Sequence record: OR906198.1 | Source: Escherichia phage BP32 | DNA: 64,000 nucleotides | Direction: 5' to 3' (one strand) | Part shown: positions 8,453 through 63,268 of the stretch, one piece after another | How the letters are laid out: the number at the start of each line of letters is the position of its first letter | Numbering within the stretch: position 1 is the first letter of the stretch | The notes under the pieces: generated by a model | What the model was told of the DNA's origin: nothing | Databases searched by the model: none | The model's input: only the letters and a program-made list of their open reading frames with translations | Position numbers and translations under genes: made by a program

Positions 8453-8476
8453 ATTTCAAAAATTTTTCATAAAACT

Positions 8477-8506
8477 GTTTACAAGCATAAAGCTTTATGG
8501 TACTAT
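8477..8506 (+). promoter_or_regulatory. T4-type early promoter with conserved leader
   Basis: gtttac...17 bp...tactat; leader to ATG 8541 nearly identical to the one at 35241-35291. Confidence 0.65.
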
Positions 8507-8540
8507 ACAACTATCAACTGATACGGATTTGGAGAATAAA

Positions 8541-9509
8541 ATGAAAACTGTAACTATCAATAAAGGTATCTACTTCGGTAAAGAAATCTCTGGAACTTTT
8601 GAGCTCTTAGGCGAATGGTTCCCAGATAATGCTCCGGTAGATGCACAAGGAGATGGTAAAGTTTTTGTTGAAATTGACGGTAAACGTCGCGGTGTTTGGG
8701 TTTACAAATCAGATATTTCATATGATGGTGTAAAAGTTGAAGAAGTTAAAGAATCATATGAAGATATGAAAACCCGCATTAATAAAAGATTTAATGTTAT
8801 GGGAATGATGACGAATGGTATTATTAATGGAAATATTCGTTCATTAATTATCTCTGGCGCAGCAGGTATTGGTAAAACGTATTCTTTAGATAAAGCTTTA
8901 AATAAAGCAAATGATATTGGATACATTGAATATAAAAGCATTAATGGTAAAATCTCTGGTATTGGTCTTTATGAGCAGCTTTGGAATAATCGTGAAGAGA
9001 ACTCTGTCCTTTTGATTGATGATGTGGATGTTTTCTCTGATATGGACATTCTTAATCTTCTGAAAGCTGCTCTGGACACTGGAGAGACCCGTAAAGTCTG
9101 CTGGAGCACTGCATCTTCTTACTTAGAAGAAAAAGGCATTGACCGTGAGTTTGAATTTAAAGGAACGATTGTTTTTATCACAAACGTTGATATTGACCGC
9201 GAATTAGACCGTGGTACTAAACTTGCCCCACACTTACAAGCATTAGTGTCCCGCTCAGTTTATTTAGATTTGGGTGTTCACACTAATGAAGAAATTATGG
9301 TCAGGGTTGAAGATGTTATTCTTTCAACCGACATGATGCAAAAGCGCGGTCTTTCTGATGAAGAAACTTATAAAGCATTATCATGGATGAAAGTTAATGT
9401 TAATCGTTTACGCAATGTTTCACTGCGTACTGCTCTTTATCTTGCTGACTTTATTATGACCGACAAAAACGGTTGGGAAGAAATTGCTGAGGTTACTCTT
9501 CTGAAATAA
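8541..9509 (+). CDS. AAA+ ATPase (Walker A/B)
   Basis: Walker A GAAGIGKTY, Walker B LLIDDVD; GGAGA RBS; the listed start at 8373 was rejected because it reads through the terminator and promoter. Confidence 0.7.
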   Translation: MKTVTINKGIYFGKEISGTFELLGEWFPDNAPVDAQGDGKVFVEIDGKRRGVWVYKSDISYDGVKVEEVKESYEDMKTRINKRFNVMGMMTNGIINGNIRSLIISGAAGIGKTYSLDKALNKANDIGYIEYKSINGKISGIGLYEQLWNNREENSVLLIDDVDVFSDMDILNLLKAALDTGETRKVCWSTASSYLEEKGIDREFEFKGTIVFITNVDIDRELDRGTKLAPHLQALVSRSVYLDLGVHTNEEIMVRVEDVILSTDMMQKRGLSDEETYKALSWMKVNVNRLRNVSLRTALYLADFIMTDKNGWEEIAEVTLLK

Positions 9510-9610
9510 TTCATAAGAGGACTTCTATGACAAAAAGGCAGTTCAGAAATAGATTATATGGACTGCCATTAAAAAGATGACTAGAATTAAACTGGTGAAT
9601 GGAGGTAGTG

Positions 9611-9913
9611 ATGTTATACTCAAAGGCTCGTGAAATTTACGAAACTAAAATTAAAGAAGCAGTATTTCAATTCGCAACGACAATGCGATGGACAAATGAC
9701 TGGGAGTATTCAAAAAATCATAAGAAGCCCATGGTGACAAGAAAGGCTCATATGTTAGTGTTAATAGACCGTGAGCAGATTAAAGCCCGAGAAGCCCTCC
9801 AGAATCATAAAAAGGCTGCCTTTGAATGGTTTATGGATAATACTGCTCCTGAGACTAAGAAAGCGGTAAGTGCATGGTTCAGTGGAAAAAATTGTGAAAG
9901 AAGTTTCTTTTAG
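9611..9913 (+). CDS. hypothetical protein (100 aa)
   Basis: GGAGG RBS 5 nt upstream of ATG 9611. Confidence 0.55.
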   Translation: MLYSKAREIYETKIKEAVFQFATTMRWTNDWEYSKNHKKPMVTRKAHMLVLIDREQIKAREALQNHKKAAFEWFMDNTAPETKKAVSAWFSGKNCERSFF

Positions 9914-9915
9914 TT

Positions 9916-9945
9916 GTTTACAAGACTGTTCCTCTGTGGTACTAT
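9916..9945 (+). promoter_or_regulatory. T4-type early promoter with conserved leader
   Basis: near-identical copy of 63098-63157. Confidence 0.65.
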
Positions 9946-9973
9946 ACAACTATCAACTACGGAGGAACAGAAA

Positions 9974-10501
9974 ATGAACGCTAAAGATATTTTCAACTTG
10001 GTAAATTACAACGATGGTAAATTTAAATCTGAAGCACAAAGCAAGTTCTTTAACGACATCTCAATCGGAGGTGAAATCACTGTTGATGGAGGACAAATTT
10101 ACAAATCCCGTTGGAATTGGATCGTTATTATTGATGAGATCGGTATTGTAGAAATTTACAAGAATACGAATAAAAATAGTACATTACACTGGTCTCGTGA
10201 TACTAACGAACAGTACAAAAAGGATAAAGCATCTAAATTATCTCGTGTAACTCAAGAAGATATTGAGTTCATCAAGAAAGATATTTTAATGTATGATAAC
10301 TTAATTGCTGAAGAGCAAGCTGTTATTGATAAATTTGACGAGATTAAAGCTTCTCGTGAAATTCCTGATTTTATGAAAGAATCAGTAAATGAACGATACA
10401 CTCTCATTTCAGAGCGTATTGAAACTTACAAAAAGCAAAGAGCTGAACGCCAAAATACTCTTCGGAAGTTTGAAGAACGGTTAAAGACGGTACTCGCATA
10501 A
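9974..10501 (+). CDS. hypothetical protein with C-terminal coiled coil
   Basis: GGAGG RBS; 175 aa. Confidence 0.6.
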   Translation: MNAKDIFNLVNYNDGKFKSEAQSKFFNDISIGGEITVDGGQIYKSRWNWIVIIDEIGIVEIYKNTNKNSTLHWSRDTNEQYKKDKASKLSRVTQEDIEFIKKDILMYDNLIAEEQAVIDKFDEIKASREIPDFMKESVNERYTLISERIETYKKQRAERQNTLRKFEERLKTVLA

Positions 10502-10556
10502 CCGCTTTATACCAAGGATGGTATAATGGTTCTAAGCCCTTTTAATTGAGATTATT

Positions 10557-10964
10557 ATGAAACAGCTGATAATTAAAAGATTGAATTTATTGATATGTTG
10601 TTTATGTGTAGTAGTTGCATATGGTTATTACGCAATTAATGATTATATGCATTATAAAGATTATGATGTTACTGTAGTTAATACCATTACAGGAACACAA
10701 GGAAAAGGGTCTAGTTTATCGTTTATTGCCGTATATGAACTCAAAGACGGTTATAGATTTAGTGAATATATTTCACCAGAGATGTATTCGTCAATAGAAA
10801 AAGGTGATAATATTACTGTAAGTTTACGTCCTTTCGACGTAAAACAGACATTGTTTGATAATATTGTTTGGTTCTTTGGAATGGTATTAGTTCAATCTGT
10901 GTGTGGTGCTTATATAGTCTTTTCCATCATATTCTGTGTATTTAGTAAAATTGAAATTGAGTGA
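10557..10964 (+). CDS. membrane protein (N- and C-terminal TM helices)
   Basis: hydrophobic segments flanking a soluble domain. Confidence 0.55.
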   Translation: MKQLIIKRLNLLICCLCVVVAYGYYAINDYMHYKDYDVTVVNTITGTQGKGSSLSFIAVYELKDGYRFSEYISPEMYSSIEKGDNITVSLRPFDVKQTLFDNIVWFFGMVLVQSVCGAYIVFSIIFCVFSKIEIE

Positions 10965-10971
10965 GGAAAAT

Positions 10972-11859
10972 ATGTCAGTCGTAATTAATAATGTCAATGC
11001 AGTAATTAAATCTTTAGTTAATAAAAAATCAAATGAATGGACTGTACTTCAACACGACGAGTCAGATAAATTTTTTCATAAATTTAACCCAGTACTAAAT
11101 TTAAATGTTATTGATAAAGATGTTCACGCCGAAATTTTAGATAAGTTTAAAGTTGATATTGGATTTGGATTAGAAAAACATTTACAACGAACAAACGGGT
11201 CTGGAATGCTTTTATCTAATCGCATCATGAAAGCCCTTAATAAAATTGGAGCGTTGTCTCGCATTAACGCGAGTGAAATTCTTCGCAATTATAATAAAGG
11301 ATATGACCTTTATGGTCGACTAATGCCGAAATTATCATTTGACCAAATGATCGCAGATTTGTGGGAAAATCAACGACGATTATTAGCATTAGGCGCTCGA
11401 TTAGCTAAAGGTCTAGATAAACAAATGATTTTTAAAACTAATAATACAGAAGACCTTAAATGCTTTAAATTTAGTACTCGTGGAGATGATTATTACGTCA
11501 GAGCTCGCTCTACAGATTATGTTAATATGGGGCATCATCTCTGTTTAGCTTTTGAAATTTTAAAAGAAGCTGGAACATTAGAATATGTGTCTGGTGCTAA
11601 ATGTCCGATTGGTTCAAGTTGTATTTTAATTTATCGCCCGGATGAATCCAGTTCAACTAAATTGCCTACAAAACCTGTACCAGTTCATAGTAATGAAAAA
11701 CATTCTGAACAAATTGATTATTTTAATAAGCAAATTGAAGAGCTGAATATTTCTATTCAACAATATGACGATGAAATCTTTAGACTATCCGGATTGAGTA
11801 GTAAAGCTAAATCTGAACGTGAAAAATTAATTAAAATTGTTGATTTACTTAAATCTTAA
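10972..11859 (+). CDS. hypothetical protein, paralog family member 1 (C-terminal coiled coil)
   Basis: GAGGAAAA RBS; 295 aa; shares central region and coiled-coil tail with the next three ORFs. Confidence 0.6.
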   Translation: MSVVINNVNAVIKSLVNKKSNEWTVLQHDESDKFFHKFNPVLNLNVIDKDVHAEILDKFKVDIGFGLEKHLQRTNGSGMLLSNRIMKALNKIGALSRINASEILRNYNKGYDLYGRLMPKLSFDQMIADLWENQRRLLALGARLAKGLDKQMIFKTNNTEDLKCFKFSTRGDDYYVRARSTDYVNMGHHLCLAFEILKEAGTLEYVSGAKCPIGSSCILIYRPDESSSTKLPTKPVPVHSNEKHSEQIDYFNKQIEELNISIQQYDDEIFRLSGLSSKAKSEREKLIKIVDLLKS

Positions 11860-11867
11860 GGAACACC

Positions 11868-12896
11868 ATGAAAACTCGTTCTCAAATTGAAGATATGGTT
11901 CGTAATGCCAGTTATACTCGTGATGTTATGACATTTTTGTGTGAAAATAATTTAGACCTTAATAAAGTTAATTGTTCCATTCACGCCTTTAAACATCTGA
12001 ATAGCAGTGAATGGGTGCGTAATTTTAGCGAAGCAGGGTATATTACACAAATGACGGCTCGTGAGCAGCTCACTGATTTCTGTAAAACTATCGATTATAA
12101 AAATCCTCTATTTGTTCAAGGCGTTGGTCAAAGTAAGGTCGATTTATCATCTGGATTTTTTAATCCAAATCATTATCGTATTGAATGGAGATTTATTGCT
12201 CTGTTCCGCAAGCAACTAAAACAAATTTTATCAACTGCGAGTCGATTAAAAGGTTCTGATATTAACTTAAAGAATCTGAAATTTGATGGTTATACTCTTC
12301 AGATGGAAGTAAGACCATTAAAAGAAAATAATAGAACTGCACGAATTAGCTTTAAACCTAATACAAAAAATTCTCTTTCAATTTGTGAATGCCTTAAATC
12401 GCAGTTGACAGAAGCATTTAAGTATATGGATGTTGTTGCTGCTGTCCAGTCTAAGATTTCACAGCGTTTCGAACTATTTAAATTAGACACAACAACATAT
12501 AAACTTGATATGATCGTTTCATTTAAATACGATTTTTTGAGAAAGGACGAAGTCACACAAGAGAAAAAGCAGGAAGTGCAAGATAACTTAAATTTAAATT
12601 TATCCAATTACTCATCAAACGATCCTAAATTTTGGATGTATAGTTCAGGTAATAAAGATGCATGGAAATTCAATAAAGTGAATTTTCTTCCTATTGAAAA
12701 TCCGAGTCTTAAACCTGTTGAAAAATGGCATGCAGATGCGATTGAAAAGTCTATCAAGGCAGTAGATGATGAACTCGTTAAAGCAACTAATGAAGTGTTA
12801 GAAGCTGAAAAGATGCTAGAAAAAGCTCAAGAAAAAGTCAAAAATCTCACGAAGCAACGTTCTAAACTGAACAATGCACTAAATGCACTGAACTAG
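11868..12896 (+). CDS. hypothetical protein, paralog family member 2
   Basis: 342 aa; AAGGA RBS; coiled-coil C-terminus. Confidence 0.6.
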   Translation: MKTRSQIEDMVRNASYTRDVMTFLCENNLDLNKVNCSIHAFKHLNSSEWVRNFSEAGYITQMTAREQLTDFCKTIDYKNPLFVQGVGQSKVDLSSGFFNPNHYRIEWRFIALFRKQLKQILSTASRLKGSDINLKNLKFDGYTLQMEVRPLKENNRTARISFKPNTKNSLSICECLKSQLTEAFKYMDVVAAVQSKISQRFELFKLDTTTYKLDMIVSFKYDFLRKDEVTQEKKQEVQDNLNLNLSNYSSNDPKFWMYSSGNKDAWKFNKVNFLPIENPSLKPVEKWHADAIEKSIKAVDDELVKATNEVLEAEKMLEKAQEKVKNLTKQRSKLNNALNALN

Positions 12897-12925
12897 TTTA
12901 CTTTACCACAGGGATGTGGTATAAT
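12896..12925 (+). promoter_or_regulatory. T4-type early promoter
   Basis: gtttactttaccacagggatgtggtataat; one mismatch from the promoter at 58099. Confidence 0.7.
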
Positions 12926-35141: not shown

Positions 35142-35224
35142 CATACAAGTAATATAAATCTATACTTAGGAAAAATAGATGATTCTGGGCCCTTTGAATT
35201 CATTAAAAATTTTTTCACAAAATG

Positions 35225-35254
35225 GTTTACATCCCGGTTCCTTTATGGTACTAT
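35225..35254 (+). promoter_or_regulatory. T4-type early promoter with conserved leader
   Basis: gtttac...17 bp...tactat; leader nearly identical to 8492-8543. Confidence 0.65.
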
Positions 35255-35288
35255 ATAACTATCAACTGATACGGATTTGGAGAATGAA

Positions 35289-35669
35289 ATGAAAATCGCT
35301 ATTTTGGTTATTGCATTGGGTCTTACTGGTTGTGTAGCTCAAGGACCAGTAGTAAATCAGTCTGATGTAGGAAAAATTGTAAACTGTTCAAGCAAATTTT
35401 ATAATCCTAATGTTAAGTGTTATAAAGAAGCTCCAAAACAGACAGTAGAACAAATGCAGGCGAATTTTGACGAAGCTATTCGTCCAGATGAATCTGCCCA
35501 AGCATATCGTAATTCAGATGTAATTACACGCGAAGAAAAAATTGAAAGCTACTGCGCTGAACTTTGGGCTAATTGGGCTAATAATTACCAATGGCGTACT
35601 GGTAAAAATGCTCCGATGGAGTATGTAGTGAATTCTTATAATTCATGTGTAAAAAATTTGACTAAGTGA
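35289..35669 (+). CDS. predicted lipoprotein
   Basis: signal peptide with lipobox LTGC; GGAGA RBS; 126 aa. Confidence 0.6.
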   Translation: MKIAILVIALGLTGCVAQGPVVNQSDVGKIVNCSSKFYNPNVKCYKEAPKQTVEQMQANFDEAIRPDESAQAYRNSDVITREEKIESYCAELWANWANNYQWRTGKNAPMEYVVNSYNSCVKNLTK

Positions 35670-54379: not shown

Positions 54380-54404
54380 AGTTTAAAATTTTTTCATAAA
54401 ACTA

Positions 54405-54433
54405 TATACATCAGTAGTTGATTATGGTACTAT
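54405..54433 (+). promoter_or_regulatory. early-promoter-like element inside an 11 bp perfect inverted repeat
   Basis: cagtagttgat-tatggtactatatcaat-atcaactactg; -35 is the variant TATACA. Confidence 0.5.
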
Positions 54434-54476
54434 ATCAATATCAACTACTGATACAGAAAACAACTTGGAGAATAAA

Positions 54477-54746
54477 ATGGAAAACTTAATTATCATCGAA
54501 CAATCTTTCAACGATTATGGTATGGCTTACGGTTATCGTGCGATAATGGAAGATTCTCGTGGATGTGTTATCGATATTGCTGAATGTAAAGATTTACTGC
54601 AGCTTTTGAAGATTGTTCGTAAAAATTGGGATTGTGAAAACATTAAAGTTCGTGTTGTAACGGAAGAAGAAACTGTTTTTCATGATGTAAAATTTGCCAA
54701 AGGTGCTGCTACTATTCTGAAACGCATCGCTCCACTGTTCAATTAA
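54477..54746 (+). CDS. hypothetical protein (89 aa)
   Basis: GGAGA RBS. Confidence 0.55.
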   Translation: MENLIIIEQSFNDYGMAYGYRAIMEDSRGCVIDIAECKDLLQLLKIVRKNWDCENIKVRVVTEEETVFHDVKFAKGAATILKRIAPLFN

Positions 54747-56281: not shown

Positions 56282-58099
56282 ATGATTAAGAATGAAATTA
56301 AAATTCTGAGCGATATTGAACATATCAAAAAGCGTAGCGGCATGTACATTGGCTCTTCCGCTAATGAAATGCATGAGCGCTTTCTGTTTGGTAAATGGGA
56401 AAGTGTTCAGTATGTACCTGGTCTTGTTAAGCTTATTGATGAAATTATTGATAACTCAGTAGATGAAGGTATTCGTACTAAGTTTAAATTCGCAAATAAA
56501 ATTAATGTTACTATCAAAAACAATCAAGTAACAGTTGAAGATAACGGTCGTGGTATTCCACAAGCGATGGTTAAAACACCTACTGGTGAAGAAATTCCTG
56601 GTCCAGTTGCTGCCTGGACTATTCCAAAAGCAGGTGGTAACTTTGGTGATGATAAAGAACGCGTCACCGGTGGTATGAATGGTGTTGGTTCTAGTTTAAC
56701 TAACATTTTTTCTGTGATGTTTGTCGGTGAAACCGGCGATGGTCAAAATAATATTGTAGTTCGTTGTTCAAATGGCATGGAAAATAAATCGTGGGAAACT
56801 ATTCCTGGAAAATGGAAAGGAACTCGCGTTACTTTCATTCCCGATTTTATGTCATTTGAAACTAATGAGCTATCTCAGGTTTATCTTGACATTACACTAG
56901 ATCGTCTCCAGACACTTGCGGTAGTTTATCCTGATATTCAATTTACCTTTAACGGTAAAAAGGTTCAGGGTAATTTTAAGAAATATGCACGCCAATATGA
57001 TGAACACGCTATCGTTCAAGAACAAGAAAATTGTTCTATTGCGGTTGGTCGTTCACCTGATGGTTTTCGTCAATTAACATACGTCAATAACATTCATACT
57101 AAGAATGGTGGCCATCACATTGACTGCGTTATGGATGATATTTGTGAAGACCTTATTCCACAAATCAAACGTAAATTCAAAATTGATGTAACTAAAGCAC
57201 GTGTCAAAGAATGTTTGACTATCGTTATGTTTGTTCGTGATATGAAAAACATGCGATTTGATTCTCAAACTAAAGAGCGTCTGACTTCTCCATTTGGTGA
57301 AATCCGTAGTCATATTCAGCTTGATGCTAAAAAGATTTCACGTGCTATTTTGAATAATGAAGCAATTTTAATGCCAATCATTGAAGCTGCCTTGGCTCGT
57401 AAATTGGCGGCAGAAAAAGCAGCAGAAACTAAAGCAGCTAAAAAGGCCTCTAAAGCTAAGGTTCATAAACACATTAAAGCGAATCTTTGCGGTAAAGATG
57501 CTGACACTACTCTTTTCTTGACTGAGGGTGATTCTGCTATCGGATATCTTATTGATGTTCGTGATAAAGAACTTCATGGTGGTTATCCATTACGCGGTAA
57601 AGTTCTTAACAGCTGGGGTATGTCATATGCTGATATGCTTAAAAACAAAGAACTGTTTGATATTTGCGCAATCACTGGATTAGTTCTTGGCGAAAAAGCT
57701 GAAAACTTGAATTATCATAATATTGCTATTATGACCGATGCTGATCATGATGGTCTAGGAAGCATTTATCCTTCTCTGCTCGGATTTTTTAGTAATTGGC
57801 CAGAACTGTTTGAACAAGGAAGAATTCGCTTTGTCAAAACTCCTGTAATCATCGCTCAGGTCGGTAAAAAACAAGAATGGTTTTATACAGTCGCTGAATA
57901 TGAGAGTGCCAAAGATGCTCTACCTAAACATAGCATCCGTTATATTAAGGGGCTTGGCTCTTTGGAAAAATCTGAATATCGCGAGATGATTCAAAACCCA
58001 GTATATGATGTTGTTAAACTTCCTGAGAATTGGAAAGAGCTTTTTGAAATGCTCATGGGAGATAATGCTGACCTTCGTAAAGAATGGATGAGCCAGTAG
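56282..58099 (+). CDS. 39: DNA topoisomerase II large (GyrB-like) subunit, uninterrupted
   Basis: 605 aa; ATPase and Toprim domains (TDADHDG); C-terminal region matches what T4 encodes separately as gp60. Confidence 0.95.
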   Translation: MIKNEIKILSDIEHIKKRSGMYIGSSANEMHERFLFGKWESVQYVPGLVKLIDEIIDNSVDEGIRTKFKFANKINVTIKNNQVTVEDNGRGIPQAMVKTPTGEEIPGPVAAWTIPKAGGNFGDDKERVTGGMNGVGSSLTNIFSVMFVGETGDGQNNIVVRCSNGMENKSWETIPGKWKGTRVTFIPDFMSFETNELSQVYLDITLDRLQTLAVVYPDIQFTFNGKKVQGNFKKYARQYDEHAIVQEQENCSIAVGRSPDGFRQLTYVNNIHTKNGGHHIDCVMDDICEDLIPQIKRKFKIDVTKARVKECLTIVMFVRDMKNMRFDSQTKERLTSPFGEIRSHIQLDAKKISRAILNNEAILMPIIEAALARKLAAEKAAETKAAKKASKAKVHKHIKANLCGKDADTTLFLTEGDSAIGYLIDVRDKELHGGYPLRGKVLNSWGMSYADMLKNKELFDICAITGLVLGEKAENLNYHNIAIMTDADHDGLGSIYPSLLGFFSNWPELFEQGRIRFVKTPVIIAQVGKKQEWFYTVAEYESAKDALPKHSIRYIKGLGSLEKSEYREMIQNPVYDVVKLPENWKELFEMLMGDNADLRKEWMSQ

Positions 58100-58128
58100 T
58101 TTACTTTACCACAAGGATGTGGTATAAT
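58099..58128 (+). promoter_or_regulatory. T4-type early promoter
   Basis: gtttactttaccacaaggatgtggtataat; one mismatch from the copy at 12896. Confidence 0.7.
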
Positions 58129-62574: not shown

Positions 62575-62591
62575 AAAATTTTCACAAAACA

Positions 62592-62621
62592 GTTTACATA
62601 CCACAAGGACCGTGGTACTAT
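62592..62621 (+). promoter_or_regulatory. T4-type early promoter with conserved leader
   Basis: gtttacataccacaaggaccgtggtactat. Confidence 0.65.
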
Positions 62622-62648
62622 ACAACTATCAGCTACGGAGGAGTAAAA

Positions 62649-62912
62649 ATGAAATTTAAATTTTATTACGCTAAACATAAAATAACTGATGAGTTTGTGT
62701 CAGTTGAATATTCTAGCGACGATGAAGGTATGATTTATACTCGCTTGGGACTATCGCATTGGGAGTCTGATACGCCTTATTTTTCAACTCCCGAAGAAAT
62801 TACACGCTTAGTTAATGGTCATATGAATGACCACTGGAATGTAATTCTTTCAGATAGTCTTAAAGCGGCTATTAATAGTAATGAAATGAAAATCGCTGAG
62901 ATTGAACTATGA
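62649..62912 (+). CDS. hypothetical protein (87 aa)
   Basis: GGAGGAG RBS. Confidence 0.55.
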   Translation: MKFKFYYAKHKITDEFVSVEYSSDDEGMIYTRLGLSHWESDTPYFSTPEEITRLVNGHMNDHWNVILSDSLKAAINSNEMKIAEIEL

Positions 62913-63097
62913 GTTCATTGTGGTGGTGTTTCGTTTGGTTAATTAGTATTCCATTAATTTGTTTAACATTTACTTTTATGATGAGGTTATTATGAAAATT
63001 TTAAATTCTGTACTTATTGCTTGTGCGTGGTGGGTTGCGCAAGTTTCGGCAGTAGTGATTGGTATTCACATTTATTACGAATATTTTTAAAAAAGTT

Positions 63098-63127
63098 GTT
63101 TACAAGACTGTTCCTCTGTGGTATTAT
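63098..63127 (+). promoter_or_regulatory. T4-type early promoter with conserved leader
   Basis: near-identical copy of 9916-9976. Confidence 0.65.
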
Positions 63128-63154
63128 TACCCTATCAACTACGGAGGAACAGAA

Positions 63155-63268
63155 ATGAAAAAGATTGTTAAAGCTATATGGAATGTAGTTATAATACTAG
63201 TAGTTTTGAGTATATTCCCAATCGTTTTAATGATTGATGTATTAAACGCTTACTTTGGATTTATATGA
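63155..63268 (+). CDS. tiny membrane peptide (37 aa)
   Basis: GGAGG RBS; hydrophobic. Confidence 0.4.
   Translation: MKKIVKAIWNVVIILVVLSIFPIVLMIDVLNAYFGFI

Follow-up and report, generated by a model that had tools for sequence, protein, structure and literature searches.

Two promoter-leader cassettes of about 60 nucleotides (nt), lying 53 kb apart in the DNA of Escherichia phage BP32, are nearly identical, and their counterparts in public genomes indicate that they repeatedly overwrite each other without moving the genes around them. The stretch that we analysed, called the window below, covers 64,000 nt of sequence record OR906198.1. It comes from a Tequatrovirus, shares 96-99% identity with many T4-like phage genomes and runs opposite to the T4 map. 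Cassette A stands before the orthologue of nrdC.8 and cassette B before that of ndd.4; a related copy, cassette C, lies just 3' of denB. Most probably, A and B are paralogous T4-type immediate-early cassettes of the class called promoter-early stem-loops (PeSLs), and they owe their likeness to a shared origin, to gene conversion and to a predicted constraint that links the promoter spacer to the leader.

Aligned without gaps, 9912-9973 and 63094-63155 agree at 57 of 62 positions (92%), with exact common runs of 30 nt (9912-9941 = 63094-63123) and 24 nt (9950-9973 = 63132-63155). This near-identity at two loci 53 kb apart had been noticed in an earlier, sequence-only reading of the same DNA, and its coordinates were correct. 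The likeness is not confined to the promoter hexamers. It begins about 4 nt upstream of GTTTAC, runs through the spacer and ends at the ATG; all five differences fall in the -10/discriminator block, which reads TACTATACAAC in A and TATTATTACCC in B. A third related copy, which had been placed near 62592-62651, is real as well: C is identical at 44 of 62 positions (71%) over 62588-62649 and has the -35 hexamer, the -10/discriminator block of A and CTACGGAGGA, without the A/B spacer. The earlier description of A and B as each preceding a different small gene needs a correction. The genes do differ, and ndd.4 is small (37 amino acids), but nrdC.8, with 175 amino acids, is not. No homology between nrdC.8 and ndd.4, which would be a sign of gene duplication, was found past ATGAA.

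Neither the 30-nt nor the 24-nt run appears in 100 dinucleotide-preserving shuffles, even at 3 mismatches. Since the window is full of similar promoters, we prefer a background fairer than shuffles: the 21 similar intergenic promoter-leader cassettes of the window, all on the + strand, compared in all 210 pairs with offsets counted from the G of GTTTAC. A and B come out as the top pair, with 57/62 where the mean is 31.4 (z 5.2). At the 17 positions after GTTTAC they are identical throughout (17/17), and the mean across the 210 pairs is 7.1/17. These figures bear on the idea that very strong promoters under one and the same selection converged on an extended T4 early consensus and that the loci exchanged nothing. 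That consensus does extend past the hexamers (PMC2988021), and CTATCA behind the -10 hexamer recurs in many cassettes of the window. The spacer, however, is far more alike than such promoters are on average, and convergence is contradicted by multi-base blocks that have been swapped between the two loci, with cross-locus copies as close as 62/62. We consider it very improbable.

The swaps can be read in other phages. The A-type block TACTATACAAC occurs at the ndd.4 locus in G8, slur14, UFV-AREG1 and the metagenome contig OBRH01000009. Conversely, the B-type block, which takes the form TATTATTACCC or TACTATTACCC, occurs at the nrdC.8 locus in ZN18, ECO07P4/5, DCP2, VIPECOOM01-03, KIT03 and EC121; in KIT03 the block at A, TATTATTACTC, is the B variant of T2. 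The swapped -10 block differs at 4-5 positions, and its flanks remain locus-specific. Across the nine genomes in which both loci were read, A and B are identical at 53/62 (T4) to 60/62 positions. Copies at different loci can even be closer than copies at the same locus: the A of the window matches the B copies of G8 and OBRH01000009 at 62/62 and the A of ZN18 matches the B of the window at 61/62, whereas orthologous copies fall as low as 54-55/62. In addition, the polymorphisms CAG/CAC and CCTCTG/CCTCCG/CTTCCG are found at both loci. A B-type block sits at A in about 16 of 664 records, and an A-type block at B in at least about 18. Because a scan of IMG/VR for the leader (9 loci) and one metagenome scan (16 loci) were small, population frequencies come from BLAST identity bands only.

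A block typical of one locus that sits at the other, inside flanks that still belong to the latter, is what short-patch ectopic gene conversion leaves behind, and these sequences indicate that the A and B loci undergo it repeatedly and in both directions. Assembly error is unlikely, because the isolates with swapped blocks come from different laboratories. Every exchange that we recovered is a non-crossover patch of at most 62 nt. On our reading, A and B go back to one origin and, as the natural chimeras show, continue to trade short patches through ectopic homologous recombination, for which the identical arms of 30 and 24 nt around the variable -10 block would supply the homology.

The sequence-only reading had gone further and supposed that recombination through this pair could move or duplicate small early genes. 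Its first half stands, in the form of natural swaps of the -10 block in both directions. For its second half we found no case among the genomes read: nrdC.8 and ndd.4 are at their usual places, and in all 29 A/B loci read, in the window and in other genomes, the flanking genes occupy their T4 positions and only the cassette interior differs. In its strict form the idea demands reciprocal crossing-over between A and B. Recombination of the T4-like type does use short homologies, close PeSL pairs form excised mini-circles (PMC2839356), and genes have been gained or lost at neighbouring cassettes. Yet A and B are direct repeats, and between them lie genes 43, 41, 61, 44, 45, 62, 42, 46, 47, 55 and 56, which include those for DNA polymerase, helicase, primase, clamp and clamp loader, dCMP hydroxymethylase and gp55. 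A crossover would therefore delete or duplicate 53 kb together with the replication genes and gp55, and its product would presumably be either not viable or not packageable. The lack of similarity between nrdC.8 and ndd.4 beyond the ATG speaks against it too, and we hold relocation of genes by this route to be improbable. Homogenisation of the A/B pair is demonstrable; movement of genes by it is not.

Recombination among such cassettes is, in its general form, an idea that had already been published as the PeSL model. PeSLs are mobile regulatory cassettes of T4-type phages (PMC2839356; PMC4122927), and the modular shuffling that they mediate has been seen experimentally as mini-circles in RB49 and phi1 (PMC2839356). 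A worked example (Fig. 6A of PMC4122927) even compares T4 ndd.4/.5 with PST ORF268/269. Like A, B and C, PeSLs consist of a repeated early promoter, a Shine-Dalgarno (SD) sequence and an ATG, placed between small non-essential genes in hyperplastic regions; their copies recombine with one another and adjoin gene indels, as here. Promoter, SD, ATG, location and recombination between copies are thus all found in our cassettes, and A and B belong functionally to this published class of recombining early-promoter regulatory cassettes. Two differences stand out. By definition a PeSL has a terminator stem-loop just upstream of its promoter, whereas in A and B the strong stem is predicted to span the promoter itself, from spacer to SD. 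Moreover, PeSLs excise mini-circles between neighbouring copies, whereas A and B exchange a non-crossover patch across 53 kb. Candidates for a mini-circle here would be B and C, which are 506 nt apart.

Dispersed copies with an internal inverted repeat could also call to mind a small mobile element, similar to a miniature inverted-repeat transposable element (MITE), or the target of a homing endonuclease. The limits of the repeat, however, are exactly those of promoter and start-codon functions, every copy is oriented with transcription, and neither Rfam nor any other source gave a family signal (an Rfam scan of the whole window returned no family at threshold). We rejected the mobile-element reading, there being no terminal inverted repeats or target duplications, and find it scarcely credible.

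As promoters, the cassettes are ordinary. A reads TTTACA-17-TACTAT, B TTTACA-17-TATTAT and C TTTACA-17-TACTAT, with TG present in all three. All thus have the -35 (G)TTTAC(A/T), the 17-nt spacer and the -10 TAnnAT of T4-type early sigma-70 promoters, in line with the T4/PST consensus TTTACW-N17-TAYWAT (PMC4122927). The A/T-rich, UP-like region at -40 to -60 is there as well, in B and C as TTTAAAAAATTTTCACAAAA-type upstream runs; upstream of A lies the A-rich 3' end of nrdC.9. The positions of A and B match T4 early transcription units: A is orthologous to T4 AF158101 53869-53979, between nrdC.9 and nrdC.8. The record of phage fPS-65 carries a 'predicted early promoter' at the position of C, downstream of denB. 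With the T4 early promoters ('uber' sigma-70 promoters of UP/-35/TGn/-10 build), A and B share the hexamers, the 17-nt spacer, TGn, the A/T-rich upstream region, the genomic sites (nrdC.9/nrdC.8 and ndd.5/ndd.4) and a short leader leading to a GGAG-type SD. Nothing essential differs, and A and B are simply their orthologues in a close relative (96-99% identical). Host sigma-70 RNA polymerase would bind the A/T-rich upstream region, TTTACA, the 17-nt TGn spacer and TACTAT or TATTAT. Transcription would start about 7 nt after the -10 hexamer, judging from the spacing, and give a predicted leader of about 22 nt, AUCAACUACGGAGGAACAGAAA, in which GGAGG stands 8 nt (A) or 7 nt (B) before the AUG; B has one A fewer ahead of its ATG. 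From this GGAGG, nrdC.8 (A) or ndd.4 (B) would be translated.

The same GGAG may also help to shut the message off after the early period, as a target of the RegB nuclease acting with S1. In T4, the GGAG of the nrdC.8 orthologue is one of 26 intergenic sites that RegB cuts in vivo, and it was graded 'moderately cleaved' (PMC1702504). The A/B leader GGAGGAACAGA agrees with the RegB/S1 consensus, GG*AGRAYARAA (PMC3014915), at 8 of 11 positions, and as in known RegB/S1 targets, its GGAG forms part of an early gene's SD and has an A-rich stretch behind it. A and B do not carry the optimal site, GGAGAAUAAAA; another leader class of the window does, for example at 8477 and 35225. This second class, CTATCAACTGATACGGATTTGGAGAATAAAATG, is common to several cassettes (8473-8551, 35221-35302 and 54400-54495), with 23 of 24 positions identical between 8477 and 35225; its GGAGAATAAAA is the optimal RegB/S1 site reported by Durand 2006, and it is essentially two 3-nt indels apart from the A/B leader. 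RegB needs single-stranded RNA, and structure protects its target (PMC1702504; PMC3014915).

Structure is precisely what the A/B spacer and leader are predicted to make together. The spacer, CUGUUCCUCUGUGGU, is the reverse complement of the SD-bearing leader, ACUACGGAGGAACAG, and the two would pair in a 15-bp stem with two G-U pairs, closed by a 15-nt loop that contains the -10 hexamer and the predicted +1. The minimum free energy is -28.8 kcal/mol for A (z -6.5) and -23.3 kcal/mol for B (z -5.2); the T4 orthologues of A and B reach z -5.0 and -3.7, and cassette C has a stem of 7 bp only. In read-through RNA, the predicted probability that GGAGG is unpaired is 0.00 at both loci; for RNA that starts at the predicted +1, B gives 0.6-0.9 and A mixed values. 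Transcripts crossing nrdC.9 are the presumed source of read-through RNA with both arms of the A hairpin, and no terminator-like site was found between nrdC.9 and cassette A. Among 20 distinct A/B variants, 97% of cells are paired, 13 of the 13 inner pairs are kept, and all five inner substitutions keep pairing via G-U.

Similar folds recur in the window. Ten of the 21 cassettes fold at z <= -3.4 (promoter starts 714, 5722, 40688, 41186, 47751, 52712, 53817, 54404, 9916 and 63098), against 1.7% of random 68-nt windows. In all ten, the spacer of the promoter supplies the 5' arm and the leader the 3' arm, and the loop between them holds the -10 hexamer. The SD is inside the stem in five of the 21 (714, 47751, 52712, A and B); in five others (5722, 40688, 41186, 53817 and 54404) it is outside, and the stem encloses the -10 hexamer. 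Cassettes of the Mosigvirus G53 likewise have stems of 9-11 bp round the -10 hexamer.

This architecture has a known late counterpart. In the T4 genes e, soc, 49 and I-TevI, a hairpin that contains an internal late promoter sequesters the ribosome site (PMC3014915). As predicted for A and B, the helix has the SD in its 3' strand and the promoter in or over its 5' strand; transcripts from the internal promoter lack the inhibitory arm, and the longer ones from upstream have it. By prediction the same occlusion holds in A and B, where the SD is paired in RNA initiated upstream and the promoter's own transcripts are without the 5' strand. A and B would thus work like this promoter-in-hairpin family, although they are not among its described members. 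They differ in the promoter, which is late in the T4 genes (TATAAATA) and delays expression to late infection, and is a sigma-70 early promoter in A and B, whose logic would instead confine translation to their own immediate-early transcripts. A literature search for early promoters inside SD-sequestering hairpins gave late-promoter cases only, older print literature not being covered.

To explain these folds we tentatively propose that early cassettes of T-even phages are self-insulating modules. Spacer and leader would constrain each other through their complementarity, and the hairpin formed in RNA entering from upstream would bury the SD, so that the anti-SD arm in the spacer would limit translation and RegB cutting to each cassette's own early transcripts. 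As RegB needs a single-stranded GGAG, read-through RNA would be spared and the cassette's own message would be cleavable. Selection at the RNA level is indicated by the two G-U pairs of the stem, which are mismatches in DNA and pair in RNA. These two pairs also argue against the notion that the inverted repeat acts as DNA, be it as a cruciform or protein-binding dyad that aids melting or as an endonuclease VII-type target that makes the site a recombination hot spot. Many cassettes do have an inverted repeat round the -10 hexamer, some without involvement of the SD, and the PeSL authors speculated on stem-loops as recombination targets (PMC2839356). A 15-nt loop disfavours cruciform extrusion. 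A role of the repeat as DNA therefore strikes us as unlikely, and markedly so.

Several observations nevertheless weigh against our interpretation, most of them against the hairpin. The stem is supported, yet gains no proof from covariation: among the 20 variants, 0 pairs have changed on both sides and 6 on one side only, and the covariation test does not set the stem apart from shuffles. At the two outermost positions, pairing is lost in 3-6 of the 20 variants. The transcript from A's own promoter is predicted to pair part of the SD weakly with coding sequence. In the Mosigvirus G53, the nrdC.8 promoter has a different spacer and its stem encloses the -10 hexamer alone; since the SD is left free there, its sequestration is not conserved beyond Tequatrovirus (no ndd.4 cassette was found in G53). 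The A/B spacer also occurs fused to other leaders (L020, L022, L023 and L029), where the anti-SD arm has no partner, so the spacer can exist without the hairpin. As for the assignment to the PeSLs, the canonical upstream terminator is not evident. A has a 7-bp, A/U-rich stem of the AGAA...TTCT type, recalling the PST/T4 consensus AGNA-loop-TCNT, yet its energy is only -3.8 kcal/mol and its z 0.15; B has z -1.35 and C z 0.06 (-1.9 kcal/mol), so that all three upstream stems are weak and non-significant, and no terminator-like sites were found upstream. Finally, the conversion counts are BLAST identity bands plus 8 sequences read directly, the +1 positions come from spacing, and the assignments of promoter, translation and cleavage in this phage are sequence-based.

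The missing compensatory changes, the free SD at the orthologous Mosigvirus promoter and the spacers joined to non-complementary leaders are what one would expect if A and B were ordinary paralogous early promoters, alike by descent and conversion only, whose spacer-leader complementarity is a passenger or by-product with no RNA function. Such a passenger would have to account for a 15-bp stem with z of -5 to -6.5 at both loci and in T4, for inner substitutions that all keep pairing, for the excess of folding cassettes, which is hard to obtain by chance, and for an architecture that matches experimentally proven T4 cases (PMC3014915). We take this to be a serious alternative, if a somewhat doubtful one.

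That A and B are T4 early promoters and that cassettes of this kind recombine is ordinary and already published, illustrated with the same ndd locus. The novelty is modest and lies in two points only, the long-range conversion and the predicted early-promoter hairpin that would insulate translation. For the first, public genomes give direct natural evidence that cassettes a third of the genome apart convert each other both ways, which carries the PeSL idea beyond neighbouring copies and mini-circles, to regulatory DNA that is homogenised over long distances without crossover. For the second, pairing of spacer and SD offers a testable reason for the 'private' spacers and for promoter and leader forming one evolutionary unit. 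If true, self-insulation would be the early-promoter counterpart of the late-promoter hairpins of e, soc, 49 and I-TevI. It would also be widespread, with five of 21 cassettes burying the SD and five more enclosing the -10 hexamer, and would account for the movement and conversion of promoter, spacer and leader as one unit in modular shuffling. Should it be confirmed, the means by which T4-like phages time hundreds of small early genes independently would include an insulator at the level of RNA, and this would matter for engineering genes into these regions.

Table 1. Positions in the window of the three cassettes, their elements and the adjoining genes.
Feature	Positions	Strand	Remarks
Cassette A	9912-9976	+	early promoter, leader and ATG of the nrdC.8 orthologue; start lies inside the nrdC.9 stop codon
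-35 hexamer of A, TTTACA	9917-9922	+	
-10 hexamer of A, TACTAT	9940-9945	+	TGn ahead at 9937-9939; predicted +1 at about A9952, from spacing
5' arm of A hairpin, CTGTTCCTCTGTGGT	9926-9940	+	predicted; inside the promoter spacer; only in RNA from upstream promoters
3' arm of A hairpin, ACTACGGAGGAACAG	9956-9970	+	predicted; contains SD GGAGG (9961-9965), also GGAG RegB motif
nrdC.9 orthologue	9599-9913	+	upstream of cassette A
nrdC.8 orthologue	9974-10501	+	175 amino acids; predicted to be driven by cassette A
Cassette B	63094-63157	+	early promoter, leader and ATG of the ndd.4 orthologue; the T4 orthologue is the ndd.5/ndd.4 intergenic region
Promoter of B	-35 at 63099-63104; -10 TATTAT at 63122-63127	+	predicted +1 at about A63134, from spacing
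5' arm of B hairpin	63108-63122	+	predicted
3' arm of B hairpin	63138-63152	+	predicted; includes SD GGAGG (63143-63147)
ndd.5 orthologue	62992-63090	+	upstream of cassette B
ndd.4 orthologue	63155-63268	+	37 amino acids; predicted membrane peptide
Cassette C	62588-62651	+	related early promoter and leader just 3' of denB
Promoter of C	-35 at 62593-62598; -10 TACTAT at 62616-62621	+	ATG at 62649-62651
Homologue of PST ORF268	62649-62912	+	87 amino acids; behind cassette C

The genes next to cassette A call for a remark on annotation. In many of the deposited genomes whose GenBank records match 9000-11000 of the window, the orthologues of nrdC.8 and nrdC.9 are called 'thioredoxin'. The label was apparently carried over from the neighbouring nrdC; nothing that we saw supports such a function.

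Modules related to A and B turn up in other gene contexts. Three metagenomic T4-like contigs (L020, L022 and L029) have the A/B spacer module at the imm.1 locus: their imm.1 promoter (window 35203-35302) has an A/B-type spacer, AAGACTGTTCYTC..., in place of the window's own, and an extra open reading frame (ORF) of about 80 amino acids, with a signal-peptide-like N-terminus, sits between leader and imm.1. The junction lies at the repeated ATGAAAAT. In L023 (ULRM01008302.1), an A/B-type spacer is fused to a leader of the window-54404 type (…ACTACTGATATAGAAAACAACTTGGAGAATGAAATG); the sequence on either side is not homologous to the window, and the spacer module thus stands in yet another gene context.

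The interval between denB and ndd.6 (window 62575-62912), where cassette C is located, is a hot spot of changing gene content. PST and VIPECOOM01 have both ORF269 and ORF268, T2 has ORF269 only, and fPS-65 and the window have ORF268, with a different leader in fPS-65; T4 retains just the last 8 codons of the 87-amino-acid PST ORF268 homologue. Microhomologies at the SD and the start codon, AAATG or GAGTAAAATG, mark the junctions. The leader of C resembles the A/B type of leader (class 1). That it was converted from A is unprovable, as two 3-nt indels separate the leader classes and small deletions explain it equally well.

The window contains another near-identical promoter pair, 12894-12925 and 58097-58128, which agree at 31 of 32 positions. 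The spacer of this pair, CCACAGGGATGTGG or CCACAAGGATGTGG, is itself a small hairpin. The copy at 58099 is upstream of the rIIA.1 orthologue, and the one at 12896 is upstream of a gene for which the first 50 kb of T4 offer no match. In addition, GGGCTTCGGCCC hairpins with a UUCG tetraloop, followed by T-runs, lie at about 21441, 25080, 30391, 32338, 56215, 61496 and 61724. They are likely to be intrinsic terminators or RNA-stabilising stem-loops, and form repeat families of their own.

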